Positions 7,410-25,120 of a DNA stretch of 64,000 bases are shown piece after piece. The stretch is from assembly GCF_000004825.1 (NCBI RefSeq), contig NW_008805072.1, positions 620,435-684,434 on the forward strand. The letters are read 5' to 3'. Position 1 is the first letter of the stretch. Every line of letters begins with the position of its first letter. The notes beneath the pieces are model-generated. The model did no database searches. It saw only the letters and a program-made list of their open reading frames with translations, and was not told the DNA's origin. Source of the DNA: Heterostelium pallidum (lineage: Eukaryota). The translations under genes and the position numbers were made by a program.

Positions 7410-8522
7410 ATGACTTCAAGAATTGTTTCAAAGATAGCAAATGGTATTGCAACATCTGACGGTGCAGGTGTGAAGTTAAAGAGAATCATTGGTGGTTCTA
7501 TTGCATCACTGTAAGTATATTTATAGATAGCCATATTAAATATATTAACAATTAAAAATTAATATTCTAGCGATCCATTCTTAATGTTGGATGAATTTAG
7601 GAATGATAATCCAAATGATTATATGGCTGGTTTTCCTGAGCGTAAGTTTTAATAAATTCATTCCTATTTTCATTTTATTTATTAATATTTCATTTCTATA
7701 GACCCTCATCGTGGATTCGAAACAGTTACATATATGATTGAAGGTTCATTCGAACATAAAGATAATAAGGGTAATCGTGGACTTCTTACACCTGGAAGTG
7801 TACAGTGGATGACTGCCGGTCGTGGTATAGTACACTCTGAGATGCCAAAGCAAGATAAAGGATTAGTTTTTGGTTATCAGTTGTGGGTTAACGTAAGTAA
7901 AGGATATTATTATATAAAATAACAATTTGTAATATTAATAAATTACCAAAAGTTACCTGCAAAAGATAAAATGATAGAACCAAGATATCAAGATATTCCA
8001 CCATCCAAGATCCCAGTTGTCAAAGAGGTCAATGGAAATCAAATCAAAGTAATTGCTGGTAACTATAAACAAACCAGAGGTCCTGTAGATGGCATCGTTA
8101 CAGACCCACTTTACCTCGATGTTACCATCGCTTCAGCACAATCATTTGTCGAAGAGATTCCAACTGAACACACATCATTCGCCTATGTATTTGAAGGAAG
8201 TGGTTTCTTTGGTCCAAAAGGAAATATGAAGAAAGTGGAAAAAGGTCAAATCGCAATTTTAGATGCAAGTGGTGGTAAAACTCAAATTGAGGTCACCTCT
8301 GACGGTGGTTGTCGTTTCCTTTTGGTGGCCGGCAAGCCAATCAAAGAAAGAGTGGTTCAACATGGTCCTTTGTATGTATTATAACACAAATTATAAATCA
8401 AATAATATCATATCAACAACAATTTATTAACATAACCTTTTACAATTGAAATTAATAGTGTAATGAACTCTGAAGAAGAAATTAAACAAGCTTTCATGGA
8501 TTATAGAATGGGAAGATTTTAA
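7410..8522 (+). CDS. Pirin (cupin superfamily; exons 7410..7510, 7571..7641, 7702..7892, 7953..8371, 8459..8522)
   Basis: Spliced product is collinear with human pirin. Matches include [58 protein letters not shown] (metal-binding cupin core), GYQLWVN|[16 protein letters not shown] and the C-terminal VVQHGPF|[20 protein letters not shown]. All four introns are canonical (gtaagt/gtatgt..ag). Confidence 0.9.
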
Positions 8523-9438: not shown

Positions 9439-9675
9439 TTAAGCACCAAGTTGGAAACAATCAGCGAAAGCTCTTCCAGCATGTTTATTCTCGGCGTGTT
9501 GTCTTAACTCTGGTTCTTTGGTGGTACACAAGAATGAAGCTCTGCAAACGTTGCACATGATGCTCTTGGCAGCTTCATTTGTTTTCAATTGACTCTTTCC
9601 CTTTGATTCACCAGCGGCTTTCTTGAGATTTCTCTCTCTCTTTTGTTGAGCACGAGCACCGTTTCCAGAAGGCAT
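9439..9675 (-). CDS. ZNF706 / 4F5-domain-like small basic protein with single C2H2-like zinc finger (78 aa)
   Basis: MPSGNGARAQQKRERNLKKAAGESKGKSQLK..CNVCRASFLCTTKEPELRQHAENKH aligns with the vertebrate ZNF706 pattern (MARGQQKIQSQQKN..KK..C.VCR........F.QH.E.KH). It has a true ATG and reads as a single exon. Confidence 0.65.
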   Translation of the reverse strand: MPSGNGARAQQKRERNLKKAAGESKGKSQLKTNEAAKSIMCNVCRASFLCTTKEPELRQHAENKHAGRAFADCFQLGA

Positions 9676-10913
9676 TATTACTTTTCTTTTTCTTTTATTA
9701 TTACTATTATAAAATCAAATATAAATAATGTAATAAAACAGTGAAATAAATATATAAATAAATATATTCAAAAATAGTACTGTGTGATTAATATAAAAAA
9801 TAAAGTACGTTACGATGGATTATTTTTGTGTTAATTGAAAAAACTTCTCAATCAAACAAAATTGATAAAAAAAAAAAACAAAATATTTATTTTAAAAAAT
9901 AAATAAAAAAAATTGAAATTCCTAAGAATTTGTGAGTTTTGAAGGGTATTCAATTAAATAGATCAACAGTTTATCCATAATTATACACACTTTAATATCT
10001 TAGATTTAATTAGTTCAATAACTCTTTACATTGATTCAAAAAAAAAAAAAAAAAAACATCTTTAATAATTAGAATCTTTATTTAATTTTTTTAATATTCA
10101 CAACTTTTTTTTTTTTTTTTTTAAAAGTTACTTGAAAAAAAAAAGTTTGATTTATAATAACAATAAAAGCTCACTGTGAAATTTATAGTTATAATTTGTA
10201 AATACTTTCTTGATTAATAGTTTATTATTAATTAAACAAGTAGTACTTTATTATTTGTTTCTATCTCTCACAGATTTGTTTTGTTTGTTCATGATGATAC
10301 AAAAGATGAAATCGTTCCAAAGGACCTCCTTTGTTGGAGGACCTTTGATCCTTTATGATTATGAATGATTAATAATCTTCTCTCTGACTTTAAACAAACA
10401 AACAAATCGAATCAATCAAATAATTAAACCAACAACAGGAAATTACAATAAATATACATTTTCTTTTAAATCATATAACTAGCTAGATCTTTTTTATTTA
10501 TTTCAACAACTAGAAGAAACACTTGTCTTCTTTTTTTTTTTTAAATAAATGTTTATTTACAAAGTATACATATATATTCATTTTTATTTGATAAAGTTGT
10601 ATTGATTTGTGATAAATATCATTGGTTATATATATTGAAAGTATAGCGCTATTATTTAGTTGTTGTTGTTATAATGCTATATTTCTTTTACTACAAGGAA
10701 TGGATTACATTCTGCAGAGTAATTAATATTTACATGAGAGAAAATCTTTTTAAGGACACTCTCTTTTTGGTAATCTAAATGTGATGTTATAGTTGCTCTA
10801 ACATCTACATTCTCAATCATATTTACATAATATTGTGTTTCTACGGTAATAATTAAAATAAAAATAATAATTTTGTAAGTAAATCATCGTTCTTTAAGAA
10901 ACCATGTATGTGG

Positions 10914-13900
10914 TTATGTATAAAACATACTCTTGTTTGAATATTCTTGGTGTTTTTGTTTTGGTGATACTCTTGATGACATTAGGATCTCTCTTGAATT
11001 CTTTATACCCGATTTAATATATTCCTCTGGTTGTTCATTGATTACTTTACTATTAATCAATGATTCTGTGATGTTGTTGGGGCTATTGGTTATTGTAGAG
11101 GTTGTAGTAGTTGTCGCTACTGTTGATTTATCTGATTCTATCATCTCTACATTATCATTATTATTGTTGTTACTTGAAAGTTTATCTAATTGATGATCTT
11201 GTCTTGAAAATACACCTTCACCAAATACAGAGCTGAATGAATGTACTTCTTCTTTGTTGATACGAATCGGTGCGAATCCAGCTGATAGATAGTTTCTTTC
11301 ATCTGGCATACTGTTGGATTCGTAGCAGTATTGCAATAGTATGTCGTCTGGTGAGTAGCAATTCACTAGTCTGCCTGATACGATCTTTCTAATCTTGACC
11401 CAAGTCGTGAGATTACTGGGCACAGGAGCACCGATAAATACTACATTCTCAATCATACCGTATGCCTTCTTGGCAATCAGCTCCAACAAACAAAAGTATA
11501 TCAAACTACTGCCCATGGAGACACCCACCAGTGTTATTGGTCGCTTTCCAAAACGAGCGGATGACAGTATTTCATCTGCCAAAACTTGGCCTGCCTTTTG
11601 TGCACTCTCCTTCACCGTTCCCCAGCATGTCTTTATAAGTGATGCCGCTTCCAAGATAGTGGCACTCGGCAAGATAGCATCGTGTAGCATTCTCGAAGTG
11701 AACTTGGCAAATGTACTGTTATCCTCTACCTGTTTCTTGTAGTTCTTTAGAGATTCATAGAGTTGATTGAGTAGCTTTGTCTCCCATGCAACGGTGTAGA
11801 CTTCGCCGAGACAGTTGACACCGGATGTCAGACTCTGTTCCCATAGTGTCATGTCCTCCTTACCGGAATCAGCTGGATTCTCAATCCATCCTAATGCACC
11901 GATTACCACATGCAATCCGAATGTCTCGTTTACCTTTTTGATGGTGAGTTCCTCAATGCCCGAAGTATGTTTCTTGACGTGCTCGGCAGTGATGGTGGCA
12001 CCGGCTGCACCAAACAACAGTGATGTCAGAGCGGATCCACTTATTCCCGCTGCCGACAAAGCAGAGAGTACCGCTGTTGCACCAATCAAGTGGAGTGCGG
12101 CACCAATCACAGGGGCGGCAACCAGTCCTCCTATGGCCAACAACGTTCCACCAGTGAGAGCAGCAATTCCAATCTTGAATCCACGATAGTTGGAAGTGGT
12201 TCGCTCAAAGAGATTCTTGATGGTGCTAGACTTGTTGTTGGACACAGAGTCGACAAGCGTCTTACCGATGACACCCTCCATGACGATCAACACTAGCTCA
12301 CCTTCCACAGGATTCAACTTGGTTGCGAAACGCATCAGACCCGAACGAATCCTAGAATCATAACCATTAGAAATAGCCAAGTTTACAACGGTTGAAAGTA
12401 TTTCCATGCCTTTCTCTTGAATCTCTTTGTGAATGGGTTCATCTTCAATGTTATTGTAGATAGCCGATTGTTGATCTCCCCCATTATCACTACCTTCACC
12501 GTTGGATTCTCTAACAGTTGAGTCATTCATCAAGGATTCAATCGATTCTATTGATTTTGTCAAAGACGGATAGTTATCCAACTTGAATGATATAGTACTG
12601 TTGGTTCTAACCAAAGTCTCACCAACCATACTGCCATCTTCATCTCTTGGTGAAACAACACCACTGCTACTAACACTCAAACTATTGATCTGAGATTGTG
12701 ATAACATCTCATGGAATTTGTTTGTAATAAATGTCATAGCAGATGACAATGTTACGAAATAATATGCTGCCTCCGACAATAGTAAATCTTGAGATCTAAA
12801 TATTTCAATATATCTAATAGTAATAATAATAATTGTGATTGTTAGGAAAACTTCATGAAGTTTAATAGTTATATATTGGGTATTGATTTGATACTTACTT
12901 GATATTGGAATAGAGATAGGCAGGATTTGTTTGAATGACTACATAGACTAAACAATTGATAAACTCGTCGGCACCGAATGACTTTCCAGATTCTTTAAGT
13001 CCCTGTGAGATGATACGAGAGAATCTGAGAAGACACATGATCTTGTCTCTCGGCGTTTGATAGAGATTGATGTGTGAGAGTTCAACGATGGCAGACTCCC
13101 ATTTGATGTTCTTCAAATGCACTGGATCCAACTCCAGGAAATCCTTTGGTTTTACTTTAAGGAAATTGATAGCATATTTAATTTCATTGTCTTTTTCTTT
13201 ATTAATTGGACAGATTCTATTATTATTGTTTATTGTTTTCATCAATCAATTAGTTACAAACTAGATAATCTTTCTAAAAAATAAATACATACAAGTCAAA
13301 TAATCTTATTAAAATGATTGATTCAACAGACTCAATGATTCTGTTTCTATCCTCTTTCCTCCAGTCTAGATATATATTATTTACAAACTTTGAGAGCTGC
13401 ATTTGAAACTGTTGACCTTTATCTACAATGAATGTTTCAAAGTCATCCTCAAAGTCACTATTCAGATATTCTCTAATCTCTCTTTCCAAATTATAAGAAT
13501 ATCTAATTAAACGAAAATTGAGAGTAAGTACTATATTGATTTGTAGCAATACAACAACACAACACTTACAATTTAATTTCCGATAATATCTTGGCGGTAG
13601 ATTCATTTGAACTTAATCTTTTCAAGAATGTATTATTATAGATTTCAGTGTAGTTTGCTGTAGGATCATCTATCTTACTACCAATATGACTGATGCTAAT
13701 GTTACTATTGATAATACTACCATTTTCATTGATTTCATTGATTTTACTTAGACTACTGATGATGTTGTTGTTATTGTTGCTGCTGCTGTCAATGGCAATG
13801 TCATAGTGTGATCTATAGTTACAGAGTGGATGTGATTCAAATAGTTGATTGATTTGGTAGTTTGTTAGGTGATAGTGATCGAATACACTCGATAGGAAGT

Positions 13901-14335
13901 TACCAACGGGTGCACACTTTGTATCACGCTCCGAATAGCACCACAGTAGGAGTGATGCAATTACCTCGCCCAACGAAGATCTCTCCTCGGTTGGTGCAGC
14001 TGCTTTTGTAATACTACCATCACTGTTCTGTAAATATTCAAGTGGTTGTTGTTCATCATCATCATAGTCATCAAAATCATCATAATCGTCTGTTGTTCTC
14101 GTAAAATTTACAGCATCATTCATCTCTACACTAACAAAACCACTTCCTCTTTTAGTTCTACCACCATCACCTCTAAAATTAATAATTGGACTATTTCTAT
14201 TCATTCTATTACTAGCACTGCTATTATTCTTGGTAAAAAGATATCTATTTAATATACTATTGTTGTTTTTGCTTTTACTGTTTTTATTGTTTGCACTATT
14301 ACTATTAATATTCATATTGTTATTATTGCTATTAC

Positions 14336-14380
<45 letters not shown>

Positions 14381-14456
14381 TACTATTGATATTTACATTA
14401 TTGTTATCATTATTAATATTATTACCATTTATATCATTGTTTTTATTTCCGAACAT
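10914..14456 (-). CDS. VPS9-domain (Rab5-GEF-like) protein fused to a C-terminal DUF726/TMCO4-like alpha/beta-hydrolase domain (exons 13569..14456, 13293..13502, 12899..13216, 10914..12795)
   Basis: Exon 1 is poly-Asn rich with a true ATG at 14456. Exons 2-3 encode a VPS9 catalytic core (..DKIMCLLRFSRIISQGL..GADEFINCLVYVVIQTNPAYLYSNI, cf. Rabex-5 [25 protein letters not shown]). The VPS9 helix continues across intron 12796-12898 into the 621-aa ORF (..K|SQDLLLSEAAYYFVTLSSAMTFI, cf. Rabex-5 GEDGYYFTNL). That ORF carries the DUF726 signature RPITLVGVSMGSSLIYFCLLEL..VVFIGAPVP..IVSGRLVNCYSPDD plus multiple TM helices. All three junctions are in frame with gtaagt/gtatgt donors. Confidence 0.75.
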
Positions 14457-15950: not shown

Positions 15951-18900
15951 ATGAATAGCCGTCGAACTTAGAGAATTATTGGAGGCTCTTGACTATCTGA
16001 TTAAGAATGGATCAACTAAACCTGTAGTTGGTGAACCAGCACCCGATTTGACACCACTCGAAGAGTTCAAGAGTATCGAGAAGTTACCAGAGTTGGTTGA
16101 AGCCCTATGGTGGAAATTGTAAGTTGATTTTAAAAAAAATAACACACACATCAAAAGAGTGAGAAGTGTAGAGCTGAGAGGAGAGGAGATAGAGAGAGAA
16201 AGTGAGAGAAAGCACACATATCAACATTATCATATGTATTACATCTATCATCATCATCATCATATCATCAATAGTGAAGATCAAAGCCTTCAAAAAAAAA
16301 AAAAAAAACAAACATAAATTTAAATTAAAATTTTAATCAAATTTATTAATCAAAAAAAAAAAATTCAAAAAAAAAATTCAAAAAAATTTCTCTCTTTTAT
16401 TTTTATTTTTGTAGGACACAATCCTCTGAACTGGCAGTCAAAGTCCGGACTTTCTTTCAGATTTGTATAGCTATTTCCTTAAAGAAGATTGCCAAAGACG
16501 ATAATCCCAATGAGTATCTTAAGGTTTTAATGAATATTTTCTCACCAAAACCATTCCAAAGGAACAATGAATATAGATATAATCAAGAATATGTTGAACT
16601 CCCAAACAAGGTTTGTATTATCCATCAAATTAAATTCATCAATTTTCGTATATTTCAATCCATATTAATTAGCTTGAAACTACGCTATTAGATATCCAAT
16701 CAACTTGCAGTCTATTTTGGTCAACATGAAGGTGTTTTGCTCTTGAAGGAAAAGATTAAAAATCATAAGGGATCTTTCGATAATTTAAAGAGATTACTTG
16801 GTACTTTGAAAAAGGTAAGAGGCAGATAAAGAAATTCAAATATCTATATATATTAATATATTTATAATTTTATAGTTTACAAAAAAGAATACAATTGATG
16901 AACCAGATGCAGAGGTAGAGGAGTTTATAAAGCTTGTGGTTAATAGAATTTTGTCGACACCAGACGAGGAGTTCAAGAATGAAAGCAAGAAAGATTTGGA
17001 TTTTTGTTTGAAATATCTCAACAGTATTGTATCAAACATCACAGAGAATCCATTTACAATGATGATCCAACTCTACAGTATGGATATTGCTCTCAAGTGT
17101 TTCAAGTCTGTATCTCTCGAGAAGAGAAATGCAGGTTTAAATGATATAATCCGTTTCACCAAGTTTGAATCTTATCATGCTTATACCAGACAATATCCCT
17201 ATTGTTCTCCAGAGTAAGTTATTATTATTATTGTTTTAATAGTACAGTTACACAAAATACTTATTATTTTTTTTATTTTTATTAGGAGAGTTGTGGAGTG
17301 GATCAGAGAAAACAAAATTGTAGAACTTTTGTTTGGTGAGACTATGCATATTCAATTACTTCAAAAATGTACAGATATTTTAAAATTTTTGGCAGAGAAG
17401 AAGGCGTTCCAGCGTAAGTACCTCGATCTTATGTGGAGTGCTGCCGAGGGTAAACATGAAACGATTGAAAATGTAATCTATGACACTATTGGAAATATTG
17501 CACCGTTGCTCCCCACCTCAGATATAGAGTATCTCTTTAATAAGATCAAGGAGATCCCTCTCGAACACTACACCACTCAGACCTTGCAGCTGATTGCCTG
17601 TCTCACTCAGAACCGTTTCCAGTTCATGGGTGGAAACAACAATGGCAATAATGTTGGTGGCAACATTGGTATCGACGATTCTCGTGAAACTACAGCTGTT
17701 CGTGGTCTGGAAATCTTTTGGTCACTCCTTCAAGATAATAATATAAATATCGACAATCAAGATGATAACAACAACAACAATGACCAACAACAACAACAAG
17801 ACCAACCACCACCACAACAACAACAAAAGAAAGAGTTGTTGGTAAACATTGACAACGACAATAATAGCAACAACAACAACAACAGTGGTGGTTCTAGTAG
17901 TCCAACAACAGGTGAGATGGTTGTTTCAGCTATTTCACCAGAGTTGACTCACCAGGCTTTGGTTCACCTCCAAGATGCACTGTACTTTCACCAACATCAA
18001 CGTCACGAATATCTCAACAAGTGCTTGGAGAACATCGAGAACCATCGATCCGTGCTGTTCTCACTGCGTTTGATTCAATATATTATCACGATTTTCACCG
18101 AACGACAGAAAAAGAATCAACCAATGAACAGCCACGAAGGATCGGCTGCCATCATCGATCACATCAACCGAGAGATGGGACTGATTGACAAGTTCTTTGC
18201 TCACCTCGAATACTACAAAGAGCAATGCAAAGTAGCTATCAACAACGAGGGAATGATGATAGTCGACGAGCTTGGTGACACCATCCTCTACGGTCGTCAT
18301 TCGCACTCTGAGCAAATGAACGAGTTCCTAAGCTTCATTAGCTTCATCTGGGAGAAATCCGATATACTACCGACCAACGGAAACATCGATGTTCTCTGGC
18401 ATGTCTACGTTGTAGATTCAATCTCTACCAAAGATAGAGATTTATTCTTTAGATGGATTGAAAGATCACTCTGTTTCCAAGTAATTATTAATAGAATATT
18501 TATATGAAAAGTTTGATTACTAATATTTTTAAATTATTTTTAGGAACAAAATCATTTATACTTTTTGGAGAAATACAATGAGATTCCATTTAACAATTTG
18601 GAATTATCTGGTGCTACATTATATATCAATTGTATGAGAGCTGTTAATCGTGACAGAGGACCGTATGTATATTTTTATCATAAACAATATTCACCATCAT
18701 TATTTATTTCTAATTCATATTTTTTTCATTATTATTATTATTATTATTAGTAAAAATTATATAGGTGTAGAGAATCTTTGGAGAATCGTTCTTGAAGATG
18801 AAAATGAAGAAGTTGGCAAAGAAGTCATTTCATTCATTATTGATTTGTATAAATTTGTAAGTTTTCTTCTTAATTTTATTAAAGTTGTTTTAAAGAATCA

Positions 18901-21900
18901 ATTTATTAATTATTTTTTTTATGAAACACAGATGACAACACAAGATAAGGATAAAGGCGATGAATTCCTTACTACATGTATTTCAAATCTCTCGAATATT
19001 CCAACTGATACTGGTGTGTTGAATAACACTGATCGAATTCTTGTTAATAGAACATTGGCTTTGATACAAACCTACCTCGAGGGTTTCGGTTCGAGAATCA
19101 AAGACTCTTTCAAAAAGAATTTCTCGCCGACCATCACCGTCCACTTTAACAATCAAAAGAGTCGTTTGCAAATGCAGATCAGAAGCAACGAGACTATTGG
19201 CCAAATCAAGGCAAGATTGGGTAAGCAAATCAACATCCATCCCGGTGCTCTCTATTTGGTTCACAATACCAAGGTGTTGCAATTCGACTACGAGACACTC
19301 GAAGACTATCGCGTGGCCAATCACGACACCATTCTCTTCAACGAGTTGGCCGAACCTCGAATCCAAGACGACGTGCAGCCAATCACCATCAATTTCGACC
19401 AGAGTAAATTCGGTCTACTCTTCTCGTTGTTGTCGATCGAGGAGATTGCCCCAACCGTATGGGAAGTTCTCATTCTCCTCCCAGTGAATCGTCAGATCTT
19501 TGACTTGTTGTCCAACATTCCAGCCGACCAAAAGAACTCACCCAACTGGGAGCACCTACTCGACCACTCCTCCGTATTCAAGTTACTCTATTCGCTCTTG
19601 ATCATTGAGAACTTTGTACAGCTTGAAGACAACAACTATGAGTGGCGTAACCGTTTCATTGCCACTGGCGGTCTAACCCAGTTGGTCAAAATCCTCATGC
19701 AAGTGGATCTCCAACACGAAAGCAAGGGTGCCAAGAGAAAGAGATGTCTCTCGCTCCTATTGAAGATCATTGTGCTGTTGGTTGTCGATTTCTCAAACAC
19801 CACAACCATCAACCTCGCCTTTATCTCCACTGCCAAAGTTTCCAACTTTTCAGCTGCCACCTTTTTGAATCGCTTGATGGATCTCGCTTGGAATCAAACC
19901 GCGCCAACTGTTCAAGGGGAAGATATGATGATCCAGCACCTCACCGACGATGGAGATGTCATCCAGAGTATCTTTCTTCTCATTCAATCATTGGTTGTCC
20001 AACCCGCTCAGATGGACCAGCTTTTCAACAGAAAGGATTTCAACAAGTGGTTGTCCCTCTTGATTCTCGACAGCAGTGACTACACCATCCGTGATTCCGT
20101 GTTCAACCGCATCTTGAGTATCTGCCAATTCAGTACTAAAGCTCATGAATTCTTTTTACACCAATGTCTCTCACTTCTCTCTGTCATTGTAGGATCCGAT
20201 CGATACTCTTTCAGTTGCAATCAATTCTTCCAACTGCTGGGATATCTTGTTCGTGACAGTTGCAATGGTGTTGCAGGTGGATCTGTCAACAACTTTGGCG
20301 AGCTCCTCCAACAACTGGTAATAATGATCAAGACACATCCAGTTGTCGAATCTTCCAACTACTACCAGCCAGACTATGTACTTATTGGTCTGTTTGGTTT
20401 GGTTCGTACACTTGTCACCTACTCACTCGATTTCAAGTTGGAGGCCGGTTACAAAGAGGATCTTATCACCGATCTCTTCCACAACTGTTTGTTTGACATT
20501 GCCACAGCAGAGAACCACGGTCCTCTCTGTCCACCAAAGTGCAAAAACAGAGAGTCACGTGACGCCTGTTTCGCATTGCTCTTGGAGTTGGCCAATAACT
20601 GCGAAGAAAACTATCGTATGTTGGTCTCGCTACTCTTGGAGCAAAACAAACCAGAGGAAAGAAGAACACTCTGGAACTACTTGCCAGCCGGTAACGAGAA
20701 GTCCACTTGTGGATACGTTGGTCTCAAGAATTTGGGTGCCACTTGCTACATCAACTCGTTGATGCAACAACTCTTTATGATTCCAGCATTCAGATACAGT
20801 ATCATCCAGGCACAAGAAGCCAACCCAACACCAGACAGCTTGCTCTATCAACTCAAGATTATCTTTGCCAACCTCCAAGAGAGTGAGAAGAAATCTCACG
20901 ATCCAAAGGATTTCTGTATGGCCTACAAATACGAAGGACAGCCACTCAATACCTACGTACAGATGGATGTTGATGAGTTCTTCAACATGTTGTTCGATCG
21001 TCTGGAAAACCAACTCAAGGGCACCAAAGAAGAGAAATTGCTGTCTGAGTTCTTTGGTGGTGCCAGTGTGAATCAATTCATCTCTCAGGAGTGTCCACAT
21101 GTCTCTGAGAGAGAAGAGCCATTCTACACCATCAGTCTTGAGGTAAAGAACAAGCGTGATATCCTCGACTCGCTTCAGCTGTTTGTCGAGTCAGAGACAC
21201 TCGACGGTGACAACAAGTACTTCTGTAGTCAATGTTCACAAAAAGTCAAGTGTCTCATGAGAAGATGTGTAAAGAAGCTGCCAAACACACTGATCATCCA
21301 CAACAAGCGTTTCGAATTTGATTTGGATCTCATGCGTAGAACCAAGCTCAATGATCAACTCAAATTCCCAATGAGTTTGGACATGGCACCATACACCAAG
21401 GAGTGTCTTGAGCGTAAGGAAGCCATTGAGAATGCCAAAGCCAAAGGATTGCCAATCCCAGACATCCCAACACATCCCGCTTCTTACTACCAGTATGAAC
21501 TCAGCGGTATTCTTGTACACACAGGTTCTGCAGAGTCTGGACATTATCACTCGTACATCAAGGAGCGTCAACCATTGATTCCCGGTCAACCACGTCGTTG
21601 GATTCAATTCAACGATCACTCGACAGAGATTTTCAATCCTGAAGACATCTCAAAGGCATGTTTCGGTGGTTACGATCACATCTCTATGGATCAAGGAAAG
21701 ACCAACGTCCGCACCACTCCACGTTACAACAATGCTTATATGCTCTTCTACGAACGTACCAATCCAGAGGCCGTTCCCAAACCAGAGTATCAAAACATCG
21801 CTCAGAACGAGGCATCCAAGTTGGTACCCTCTGAGATATTCAATAGTGTCTGGCGTAAGAACATGAAATTCCTTCACGACAAGAATATCTTTGATCCAAA

Positions 21901-24900
21901 CTACTTCCATTTCATCTGGCAATTCCTACACTTGGACCCCATCAACAGTAATCGTATGACCGATGAAGATGACCACTTTGATCAGGTAATGATGACCATT
22001 GAGTTGGGAACTAGATTTGTCATTGAAACACTCTCGCACTCGAGAGAGAGAAAGACACTTGGTGATTTCATCACCTATATCTGTTCATTGTTCTCCACTC
22101 ACATAGAAGCCTGCCAATGGTTCCTCGATTCGATGACCTACGACTCAACATGGATTCGTCAGAATATGTTGGTTTGTCTCACCAATGATCCAAGAGAGTC
22201 GCTTGCCAAATTACTTCTTCAAGTGATCCAAACTCTCATTCCAATCGATCGTCAATATTACTTTGAGATTGAAAAGGATCCATCGGTGGAATCACCAATG
22301 GAAATCATTGAGATTGACGACAACGATAATGGTGGTGGTGGCGGTGGTGATGGCCAATCTTCACAACAATCAACTGGCAAACAAAAGGCAATCACACAAA
22401 TGATTGACCAAGAAAACTACACCATTATCGGTGGTCGTTCCAAGTCATTCATCGTAAGATTCATGGATACCTATCTCGATTTCATTAAAGAGGCGCCATT
22501 GTTCTGGAGACACTTCCAACAGTACTTCACATTGATTCGTGACTTTAGTGTGTTGGGAACCGAAGAGAAGCGTTACCTACTCTCTAGAAATGTATTGTCA
22601 CGTCTTATCGATTTCTACATGGGTGAGGAGTCGCCATTGTCAAAGACTCATCCACCACAAAAGAAGACAAAGATGGGTGACAAGTATAATTCACCACAGC
22701 ACCAATCCATGTTGGAAACCGTTGCCATCTTGACACTTGCCTCACACACTCGTTACTCGAAACTCACAGGACACGTACTTCCATCACACAATGAAAAGGA
22801 ACCGTTGGACATGAGTGAGGATGACCTGTACATGATTACACATCCTCACTTTATTATGAAGACTATTCGCGAGAATATCAATCCACGTTCCTCCACTGAG
22901 ATTCTTCAACACATTTGTTTCGGTGATATCGAGCTCAGCAAGATCATGATCCAACACATTCAAAATATCGAGGGTAAAGCACCACTCGATGCCTTGTTAC
23001 CATTGATCACCATGGAGGATCACTACTACGCAGAGCGTGCCGATTTGGCCCTTAGAGCCTATATTAATCTACTCGATTGTAACAAACAACGTGCATATAT
23101 CCCACACATCAAGTATATAATTGATCAAGCCACGAGCAGTCAAGTCATTGGCGATTGGTTCGAGAAGAATCTCGACGAGTGGTTGATCAAGTGGACTGTT
23201 GTCTCAGAGTCGATAGAGGTTCGCTCCGATGCATTCAACTTGGCAATTTCACTCTTTAATCTCTCGGGTCAAGCTCAACTCGATCACAACAAGATCCACA
23301 GTCTCTTCCTCTACCTACTTTCTCATGCCAAGGAGGTCAAGAGCATTGTCAAAGCCGAAAAGGATATTCGTGGTGGTAGAGTCGAATTCTACTTTAGATT
23401 ACTCACCCTCTGTATCGTAAGCAATGAAGAGAAGAAAGCATTTGCTCAGTATTTCGCACCACTCGTCAAGATGCTGCAAATTCTCATTACCTCGAATGTG
23501 GCCATCGAGAGAAGCAGACAAGAGATCATCAGATTCTTTGCTGCCATGCTCAAGGATTGTCCAGAGAATATTAAACTACTCCTCGAAGATCCAATTCACA
23601 ACAAGATTATGGATTACTTTATCAGTATTTCGCCAAAGGAAGAATTCAGAATGTTCAACCAAAAATCATTGCCCTATTTCTACCAGGTCATCTTGTATAT
23701 GTCACAACAGAGTTTGGAATTCCTCAACTTTGTTGCCACTCATAACAACTACACATGGGCACTCTCCTTTTTGTACTTGGAGTGTATCGATTACACAGAT
23801 GTTGCCAACATTCTCTTCCAGTTGACAGAGCTCATTGCACAAAAGTTCCCACAACACATCTCGAGAATATTGCACCACTGCATTAGCTTCCCTAACTTCC
23901 ATCTGTGCCTGGCCAACTGTGTCACCATTCTCAACTTGTTGGTCAACAAGAAGAAGGATGCTGCTATGCTCTTCCAGAATTTCCAAAACAACAACAATAT
24001 CAATGAGCGTTGGGTTCCAATTGAGATACTTTGCAAGCAATTGAGAACGAAATCTCAAAACCCAGCCGGTGTAAAGTTGATCGAGTTCATCAGCAAAGTA
24101 CTTGCATTGTTGCGTAAGGAATCATCACCCAATCTCAACAATGGTGAGATCGCTGGAGATCAACCACAGTCACCAACTCAATTGAATATTTGGGACAGCA
24201 ATTATCCACCATTTAAATTGGTTGTATCGGCACTCTTTAATGCTGCTGAATCGGGTACCCTCTACCACAATCACATTAGCAAGGTTTTCAATCAGATCTC
24301 CTGTGAATATCCAGAGGGTATCATTTTGGTATTGTACGATATGTTCAATAAGAGAAACGGTCCAAACTTTGATACCGAATCATTGAACAACAACAACAAC
24401 AACAACAATAATAATAATAATAACAACAATCAACAACAGCAACAGAACCAACTACAACAACAACTATTGACTCCAGAGTCATTCTACAAATTGTTGTTGG
24501 ATACAATCAATCTATGCTCATTGAATCATCCAAATCCAGCTGTTCAACAAAAGGGTATCAACCTGACATTCAAGATCATCAAGGAAATGTTGACCATCGG
24601 TCTCGAGAGCGCCTATCAAGTACTGAGCAATATGGTATCAAAGAATCCGATTCAAATTAAAGACGAAGAGAAAGTTTCAATCATGACCTACGCAGTAAAG
24701 AATCCACATACAATGTTGAACCAAGAGTTCTTCCTCATTATCAAGAAGTTCTTTACCGATACTGAGCGTCTAATGTCGATGGAGTCCAACATGATTTTCG
24801 CTGGATTAATCAGATCACTCGAAGATCAAATCAGCACCTCGATCGCATCGATCAACTCTCTTGGATTCCCGCTTCAATCGGCACCAGCAGAAGTCGAAGC

Positions 24901-25120
24901 CGATATTGACCAACACTTGGTTCAACTCACCAACTCTTTGAAATCCATCGAAGTTTTGGGTGGTAGTGGTCTTGGTTCTCAACACATCACACCAATCTAC
25001 GAAATCCTACAAGCCTTTAGCACAGAGATCACCGATGACAATGTCTCTAGTAAAGCAAAGCTTTTCAAATCAAATTTAGAATCCTTGAAATTCAACACTT
25101 CTCAAAAAAAAGATCAATAA
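15951..25120 (+). CDS. USP9X/FAF-like large ubiquitin carboxyl-terminal hydrolase, ~2800 aa (exons ~15954..16118, 16415..16610, 16692..16814, 16876..17213, 17286..18480, 18544..18662, 18751..18856, 18932..25120)
   Basis: USP catalytic domain with Cys box GYVGLKNLGATCYINSLMQQLF and His box YELSGILVHTGSAESGHYHSYIKER. A ubiquitin-like domain lies upstream (TITVHFNNQKSRLQMQIRSNETIGQIKARLG..). Long armadillo-like flanks resemble USP9X (e.g. NLWRIVLEDENEEVGKEVISFIIDLY). Track ORFs 16936..17217, 17293..18507, 18565..18750 and 18650..25120 are joined by canonical introns. The 5' end is uncertain (see findings). Confidence 0.88.

Follow-up and report, generated by a model that had tools for sequence, protein, structure and literature searches.

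A VPS9-DUF726 fusion gene of Heterostelium pallidum predicted to join a Rab exchange factor and a hydrolase in one protein

A window of 64,000 nt from Heterostelium pallidum (NCBI RefSeq assembly GCF_000004825.1, contig NW_008805072.1, positions 620,435 to 684,434 of the forward strand) was analysed. On its minus strand, at 10677-14456, it carries a gene with five exons whose product of 1153 amino acids (aa) has a VPS9 domain followed by a DUF726 domain; the splice sites were re-derived in the analysis. The fusion is real and the two domains lie in one gene. Very probably this is a group A member of the VPS9-DUF726 fusions of dictyostelids, in which a Rab guanine nucleotide exchange factor (GEF) and a hydrolase would be coupled in cis. 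Both domains were recognized by Pfam on the spliced product, VPS9 (PF02204) at aa 405-503 with E=1.7e-30 and 105.9 bits (cut-off 27; profile positions 1-101 of 104), and DUF726 (PF05277) at aa 684-974 and in a C-terminal stretch with E=2.1e-62 and 211.5 bits (cut-off 22.6). The junction of exons 3 and 4 falls within codon 472, and the last 31 VPS9 residues are encoded in the DUF726 exon. Because the VPS9 fold crosses intron 3 into the DUF726 exon, the locus represents one gene and not two. All four introns are canonical (GT..AG) with 72-82% A+T, and the alignment with orthologues runs uninterrupted over every exon junction. The initial annotation of this DNA, which described a single gene with a VPS9 domain split by an intron and continuing into a large DUF726 open reading frame (ORF), was right on the fusion, wrong on its being unrecorded, and probably wrong on membrane embedding of the protein; as a whole it is supported in part.

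The first homology search yielded five dictyostelid proteins whose annotation includes PF02204 as well as PF05277. When 1.84 billion representatives were searched exhaustively with the orthologue profile and the exon translations as query, 5090 profile matches were obtained, and a VPS9 domain was present in only 13-14 of the best 152 of these (Pfam; local hidden Markov model). Among the same best 152, all VPS9-carrying proteins with a named source are from Amoebozoa: Cavenderia fasciculata, Heterostelium album, Synstelium (two copies), Dictyostelium purpureum, D. firmibasis, Polysphondylium violaceum, Acytostelium subglobosum, Physarum polycephalum, Clastostelium recurvatum, and Mastigella eilhardi. 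The same architecture was found in this way both in other Dictyostelia and in other Amoebozoa. The fusions of Physarum, Clastostelium, and Mastigella are single ORFs derived from transcriptomes, and thus indicate at the transcript level that relatives have a fused mRNA. As Clastostelium is a member of Eumycetozoa and Mastigella one of Archamoebae, the fusion is, judging from these sequences, at least as old as the common ancestor of both groups. A word-index search for the architecture outside Amoebozoa, made with a profile of all fused proteins, returned the query only, and an earlier word-index search had missed most relatives.

That the two domains do not belong to separate genes, as the initial annotation maintained, is confirmed by these transcript-derived ORFs and by the genomic DNA of D. 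purpureum and A. subglobosum, where the same junction and fusion are present and intron 3 lies at the same codon. Intron 2 is absent in D. purpureum, as one tblastn high-scoring segment pair (HSP) spans aa 160-474. Intron 4 is at the same position in A. subglobosum (P0002 ...KEK|RLEFYLDMIENVDV), and in D. purpureum a frame change between HSPs was seen at the intron 4 site. The gene order, with a USP9X-like gene upstream in divergent orientation and a SERF/zf-met2 gene downstream, is the same in the window, D. purpureum, and A. subglobosum.

In a neighbour-joining tree (a rough distance tree computed from 563 conserved columns, without support values), the window protein was placed in dictyostelid group A beside that of A. 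subglobosum, with 68% identity over the conserved columns. Identity is 52-68% to full-length group A proteins, 49% to the partial C. fasciculata model, and 29-34% to the group B paralogues. By sequence comparison, the window gene is classified as the dictyostelid group A VPS9-DUF726 orthologue. The amoebozoan proteins DICPUDRAFT_153177 (D. purpureum), CYY_009166 (P. violaceum), SAMD00019534_117230 (A. subglobosum), and F4PHI9 (C. fasciculata) have the domain order and the conserved N-terminal region of the window protein, but their low-complexity inserts differ from those of the window protein. Neither the exact 1153-aa product nor the SERF neighbour was found in a collection of 15 billion protein sequences.

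The initial annotation knew of no described protein with such a combination, but both domains are recorded in UniProt/NCBI for D. purpureum, P. violaceum, D. firmibasis, C. fasciculata, and H. album, and the orthologues are named there 'VPS9 domain-containing protein' or 'transmembrane protein'. In Table S1 of Herman et al. 2018, D. discoideum DDB0234182 and DDB0234184 are placed in the Rabex+GAPVD1 clade and labelled 'Vps9, alpha/beta-hydrolase family'; no other taxon has the combination in the parts of this table on Amoebozoa, excavates, and plants, a third 'hydrolase' entry stands elsewhere in the file, and the main text is silent on the combination (PMC6032885). The two D. discoideum proteins are likened to the window protein by their description in this table. 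Dictyostelia have 18 conserved VPS9 proteins, of which only RgfA was studied (Forbes et al. 2021, PMC8923023). In a literature search, no paper mentioning DUF726 together with Vps9 and no papers on DDB0234182/DDB0234184 were found; the one paper with both TMCO4 and Vps9 is a RAB18 study in which the fusion is not described (PMC10641524). The architecture is thus catalogued and functionally unexplored, and the window gene is a further member.

The N-terminal half is predicted as a tandem of helical bundle (HB) and VPS9 domain similar to those of Rabex-5 and AtVPS9a, that is, the minimal exchange-factor core for Rab5/21/22 with an aspartate finger. In a PDB sequence search, aa ~345 to ~510 matched the solved HB-VPS9 tandems of AtVPS9a (2efc, 1.1e-22) and Rabex-5 (1txu, 4e-15), in alignments that start about 50 residues upstream of the Pfam domain and cross the exon 3/4 junction. 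D449 in the GADEF motif is recognized as the aspartate finger because it aligns with D185 of AtVPS9a, which lies in GADEF in 2efc and is mutated in 2efh (D185N, reading GANEF). The equivalent catalytic aspartate finger of Rabex-5 is presumably D313. The Tyr pair of the YYF motif is retained as well. With Rabex-5, yeast Vps9, and Arabidopsis VPS9a the window protein shares the HB and VPS9 tandem, the GAD(E/D)F aspartate finger, and the YY(F) motif; it differs from them in lacking parts that bind ubiquitin (zinc finger, UIM, or CUE) and a coiled coil that binds Rabaptin, and in the hydrolase fused C-terminally.

N-terminal to the HB there is a helical region at aa 158-222 (13985-13791, minus strand; GEVIASLLLWCYSERD...YHLTNYQINQLFESH), for which no Pfam match was found. 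It is common to the full-length dictyostelid group A proteins, has predicted local distance difference test values (pLDDT) of 85-91 in the orthologue model, and is absent from P0001, whose model begins further downstream.

The C-terminal half represents, as judged from conserved motifs, a complete DUF726 module of the TMCO4/Mil1 type with an intact predicted triad. Ser904 of GVSMG, Asp962 of SPDD, and His1120 of SHLDY align with nearly invariant columns among 138 DUF726 relatives and correspond to the Mil1 triad S759/D817/H858. YDSRIR and the GGLxAP...LFGAAGA segment also fit the consensus of these 138 relatives. As the YDxR helices and the Gly/Ala-rich segment are located upstream of the Pfam boundary, the whole TMCO4-like module seems to be fused and not just its catalytic core. 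The likeness to Mil1 (Yfl034w) and TMCO4 consists of the PF05277 match, the YDxR helices, the Gly/Ala-rich segment, and the order of Ser, Asp, and His. The window protein differs from both by a Rab-GEF domain in place of the N-terminal partner-binding region and by the low-complexity insert of about 100 aa between the Asp and His strands. Such an insert is present in every dictyostelid group A protein, with differing sequences, and is disordered in the model. A PDB sequence search found no solved relative of the DUF726 half, and no DUF726 structure is solved. In a 2024 survey of alpha/beta-hydrolases, other multi-domain exceptions of DUF726 are given and VPS9 is not among them (PMC11878206).

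An AlphaFold2 model was computed from a 91-sequence alignment for the group A homologue of P. violaceum (P0004), and the structural readings apply to that protein. Its mean pLDDT is 73, with about 90 over HB and VPS9 (128-391) and the hydrolase (600-860, 917-963); most of the hydrophobic segment, the linker, and the low-complexity insert stay below 50. Strand 764-769 and helix 771-785 enclose the Ser, strand 821-825 precedes the Asp, and strand 936-939 precedes the His; in the model, the three residues would follow strands in the canonical alpha/beta-hydrolase order, with a nucleophile elbow. Rabex-5 and AtVPS9a HB-VPS9 tandems were the best matches in Foldseek against PDB (E~1e-7, TM-score 0.6-0.72), and full tandems of 245-265 columns were matched in 2ot3, 1txu, and 2efc. 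Esterases and thioesterases came next, with a probability of 0.9-1.0 and weak E values of 0.02-0.1.

The protein could be cytosol-facing and peripheral on endosomal or Golgi membranes. Its VPS9 tandem would bind and activate a GTPase of the Rab5 family, which in Dictyostelia would be Rab5 or Rab21, and the tethered serine hydrolase would have a lipid or acyl compound of the same patch of membrane as its substrate, whereby Rab activation and local lipid remodelling would be coupled in cis. A role of Rab21 in Dictyostelium phagocytosis is known (PMC8923023). We infer this mechanism because Mil1, whose triad is needed for full function and whose mutation there impairs function, is located at the Golgi and early endosomes and binds the AP-1R mu subunit Apm2 with its N-terminal region (PMC4751606), because human TMCO4 is recruited by active RAB18, TMCO4-EGFP being diffuse until then (PMC10641524), and because the N-termini of DUF726 proteins are variable. 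By analogy with these trafficking links of the family, the variable N-terminal 'trafficking adaptor' slot of a DUF726 enzyme may be filled in VPS9-DUF726 by a Rab-GEF module.

Several points weigh against such a function. The gene structure at the locus was read from genomic DNA. RAB18, the known Rab partner of TMCO4, is to our knowledge not a VPS9 substrate. The hydrophobic segment exceeds the Kyte-Doolittle threshold for a transmembrane (TM) helix and has pLDDT below 50 in the P0004 model. GEF or hydrolase activity is reported in the literature for no VPS9-DUF726 member, and RabGEF activity for none of the 18 dictyostelid VPS9 proteins (Forbes et al. 2021, PMC8923023). Finally, the window protein has Asn in place of the Pro in Rabex-5 FLP and Val in place of the Thr in YYFT, in which it differs from Rabex-5, yeast Vps9, and Arabidopsis VPS9a. 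The Pro of FLP and the Tyr and Thr of YYFT reportedly matter for exchange by Rabex-5, as found by Delprato et al. in 2004.

These substitutions bring in the possible, if rather less probable, explanation that the VPS9 module is a pseudo-GEF, which binds a Rab or another partner and targets the hydrolase without exchanging nucleotides. All group A orthologues are changed at the same two positions (FLP Pro to Asn, Gly, or Ser; YYFT Thr to Val or Ile), and one protein each of group A (Synstelium) and group B (D. firmibasis) has Glu at the aspartate finger. The N-terminal region of Mil1 is likewise a pure binding module, and the missing reports of GEF activity among dictyostelid VPS9 proteins fit here as well. 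On the other hand, most orthologues share the aspartate finger (D449) and the YY motif with the window protein, the complete catalytic HB-VPS9 tandem is preserved and modelled with high confidence, and a Pfam score of 105.9 bits is usual for genuine VPS9 domains. An active exchange factor is preferred here for the VPS9 half.

It is unlikely that the product is an integral membrane protein with Gly/Ala-rich TM helices, where an odd number of spans would bring the hydrolase into the lumen and leave the GEF in the cytosol. The initial annotation spoke of a membrane-embedded protein with TM helices, and over aa 685-748 Kyte-Doolittle means do reach 2.1, databases use the name 'transmembrane protein' for those of C. 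fasciculata and H. album, and the AlphaFold2 model of P0004 packs the hydrophobic segment without confidence. However, such a Gly/Ala-rich segment is a feature of the whole family; it contains much Gly, Ala, Ser, and Thr, and a conserved Pro. Moreover, Mil1 is released by high salt and so is peripheral (PMC4751606), TMCO4-EGFP is diffuse until it is recruited by RAB18, and neither DeepTMHMM nor the 3D model has a TM helix in TMCO4 (PMC11878206), which makes membrane embedding doubtful. As the segment passes the Kyte-Doolittle threshold and is poorly modelled, it could nevertheless form a monotopic hairpin.

The 3' end of the gene was misplaced in the initial annotation, where the span was 10914-14456 and the product 1099 aa; the fourth intron and the last exon were overlooked and TAA at 10914-10916 was taken as the end. 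The full-length orthologues all go on with ...IENVDV..SHLDYQK..FSHVNI..., whose counterpart is the window ORF 10677-10820. The exon 5 peptide KTQYYVNMIENVDVRATITSHLDYQKESVLKKIFSHVNINYSAECNPFLVVKEI aligns with the C-termini of four orthologues, including those of A. subglobosum and P. violaceum, and addition of exon 5 brings a match to a second stretch of DUF726 and lifts the score from 200.4 bits to 211.5. With the endpoint at 10914, exon 5 and its catalytic His are dropped, and the hydrolase would thus be truncated. A real product of this kind, ending with ...SMFYT at 10914 after retention of intron 4 and acting as a pseudo-hydrolase without the catalytic His, is very improbable. The read-through ORF stops 15 nt past the donor and pseudo-enzymes seem to exist among relatives (the GTGMG proteins of group B from Heterostelium and Synstelium), but intron 4 is canonical (GTATGT..TAG, 78% A+T) and has its position in common with A. 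subglobosum, and the ORF downstream of it aligns over its full length with orthologue C-termini and keeps SHLDY. Least probable of all is a misjoining of two neighbouring genes, one for VPS9 and one for DUF726, by conceptual splicing: the model rests on DNA and the 621-aa ORF could in principle start internally, but the last 31 VPS9 residues are in the DUF726 exon, the A. subglobosum genomic ORF and D. purpureum share the layout, both domains stand in single transcript-derived ORFs of Physarum, Clastostelium, and Mastigella, and the upstream ORFs have no in-frame stop ahead of the donors, except one within the GTAAGT donor itself.

For intron 3 there are two acceptors, both in frame and separated by 18 nt. 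Splicing at the upstream site (12814/12813) includes YIEIFR. This hexapeptide aligns with YIQRYR of AtVPS9a, YITRF of Rabex-5, YIELFR, FIDLFR, or FIELFR of orthologues, and the A. subglobosum genomic ORF, and its inclusion lifts the VPS9 score in Pfam from 81.5 bits to 105.9. Of the junction 12795/12899 given in the initial annotation, the donor side at 12899 was kept and the acceptor was moved to 12813; the acceptor 12796/12795 was rejected, as it loses YIEIFR, lowers the VPS9 score, and is disfavoured by the orthologue and PDB alignments. The junction 13216/13293 was kept without change. In the junction 13502/13569, 13502 is correct, but with exon 1 ending at 13569 the frame breaks and 13570 restores it. 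With alternative use of the two intron 3 acceptors (12796-12814, minus strand), YIEIFR would be present in or missing from a VPS9 helix.

Proteins of the DUF726/TMCO4/Mil1 family are conserved across eukaryotes with an intact triad, and have orphan substrates and scattered links to trafficking (yeast AP-1R, human RAB18). A fusion kept since the ancestor of Eumycetozoa and Archamoebae would be independent evolutionary evidence that DUF726 hydrolases work beside Rab switches. In a Rosetta-stone reading, put forward here only tentatively, there may be a general and unrecognised partnership of DUF726 hydrolases (TMCO4/Mil1) with Rab-GEFs and Rabs, of which the amoebozoan protein would be a self-contained unit of GEF and effector. 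If this is true, lipids would be remodelled where a Rab5-family GTPase is switched on, with a positive feedback like that of Rabex-5 and Rabaptin-5, and the orphan human lipase TMCO4 would be assigned to an endosomal Rab pathway. Knock-outs and live imaging are routine in Dictyostelium, a genus that has the fusion.

Table 1. Features of the VPS9-DUF726 gene and of neighbouring genes (positions are those of the window).
Feature	Position	Strand	Description	Basis
Exon 1	13570..14456	-	aa 1-296; ATG 14456-14454; Asn-rich low-complexity N-terminus, conserved helical region, start of helical bundle	ORF, splice donor GTAAGT at 13569; orthologue alignment unbroken over junction
Intron 1	13503..13569	-	67 nt, GTAAGT...TTAATTAG, phase 2, 72% A+T	
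Exon 2	13293..13502	-	aa 296-366; HB ahead of VPS9	AtVPS9a and Rabex-5 PDB matches begin inside exon 2; Foldseek of orthologue model covers whole HB-VPS9 tandem
Intron 2	13217..13292	-	76 nt, GTATGT...AATAATAG	
Exon 3	12899..13216	-	aa 366-472; first two thirds of VPS9; GADEF with predicted Asp finger D449 at 12969-12967	Pfam, PDB alignments
Intron 3	12814..12898	-	85 nt, GTAAGT...ACTATTAG, phase 2; cryptic in-frame AG 18 nt downstream, 12797-12796	
Exon 4	10931..12813	-	aa 472-1100; last VPS9 helices (YIEIFR...AAYYFVTLSSAMTFI), linker, then DUF726 parts	Pfam, motif alignment, hydropathy
Linker in exon 4		-	~100 aa between last VPS9 helices and YDSRIR helices	
YDSRIR helices	aa 605-660	-	YDSRIR aa 623-628; typical of DUF726 proteins; exon 4, before Gly/Ala-rich segment	
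Gly/Ala-rich hydrophobic segment	12176-11985	-	aa 685-748; exon 4	hydropathy
Alpha/beta-hydrolase core (predicted)		-	GVSMG Ser904 at 11519-11517; Asp962 at 11345-11343; exon 4	motif alignment
Low-complexity insert	10932-11231	-	aa ~1000-1099, ~100 aa, Asn/Thr/Ser-rich; between Asp strand and His strand of hydrolase fold	
Intron 4	10841..10930	-	90 nt, GTATGT...TACCGTAG (TAG end), phase 1, 78% A+T	
Exon 5	10677..10840	-	aa 1100-1153 and TAG stop 10679-10677; last beta-strand, His1120 (SHLDY, 10781-10779), C-terminal helix	ORF 10677..10820; orthologue C-termini
SERF-like/zf-met2 gene	9439-9675	-	single exon, 78 aa; downstream, same strand as VPS9-DUF726 gene	
Pirin gene, probably intron-split	7734-8384	+	two adjacent ORFs: Pirin 1e-19, Pirin_C 1.8e-15	
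USP9X/UBP24-like deubiquitinase	17293-25120	+	ARM_UBP24_USP9X-Y, ubiquitin, UCH, DUF3517 domains; divergent from VPS9-DUF726 gene	

Some paralogues of group B deviate at catalytic positions. Those of Heterostelium (H. album P0014) and Synstelium (P0015) read GTGMG, with Gly for the nucleophile Ser, and are probably pseudo-hydrolases. The group B protein of D. firmibasis (P0009) has kept the Ser (STSMG) and has Glu at the position of the VPS9 aspartate finger.

Public models of the VPS9-DUF726 family are often truncated or mis-spliced. The window locus supplies a complete five-exon model and exposes public models in which part of the VPS9 domain or the catalytic His is missing. The A. subglobosum model P0002 (L002 6001-9413) skips the VPS9 C-terminus and the linker, though the ORF at L002 7139-9184 encodes them. 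C. fasciculata P0008 and Synstelium P0003 are without the YIE(L)FR hexapeptide, possibly through use of the same cryptic acceptor. Synstelium P0015 has an RNA_pol_Rpc4 domain at its end, and the model P0011 runs to 3598 aa; both are likely merged with neighbours.

The region is AT-rich and has Asn-rich coding repeats. Coding G+C content is 40-52%, reaching 46-52% in the hydrolase exon (11400-12300), versus 17-25% in the flanking non-coding DNA. The value for the hydrolase exon is well above that expected for coding sequence of D. discoideum and would suit a species nearer to Acytostelium. Plus-strand ORFs of up to 124 aa inside exon 4 were taken as antisense artefacts of this GC-richer coding stretch.

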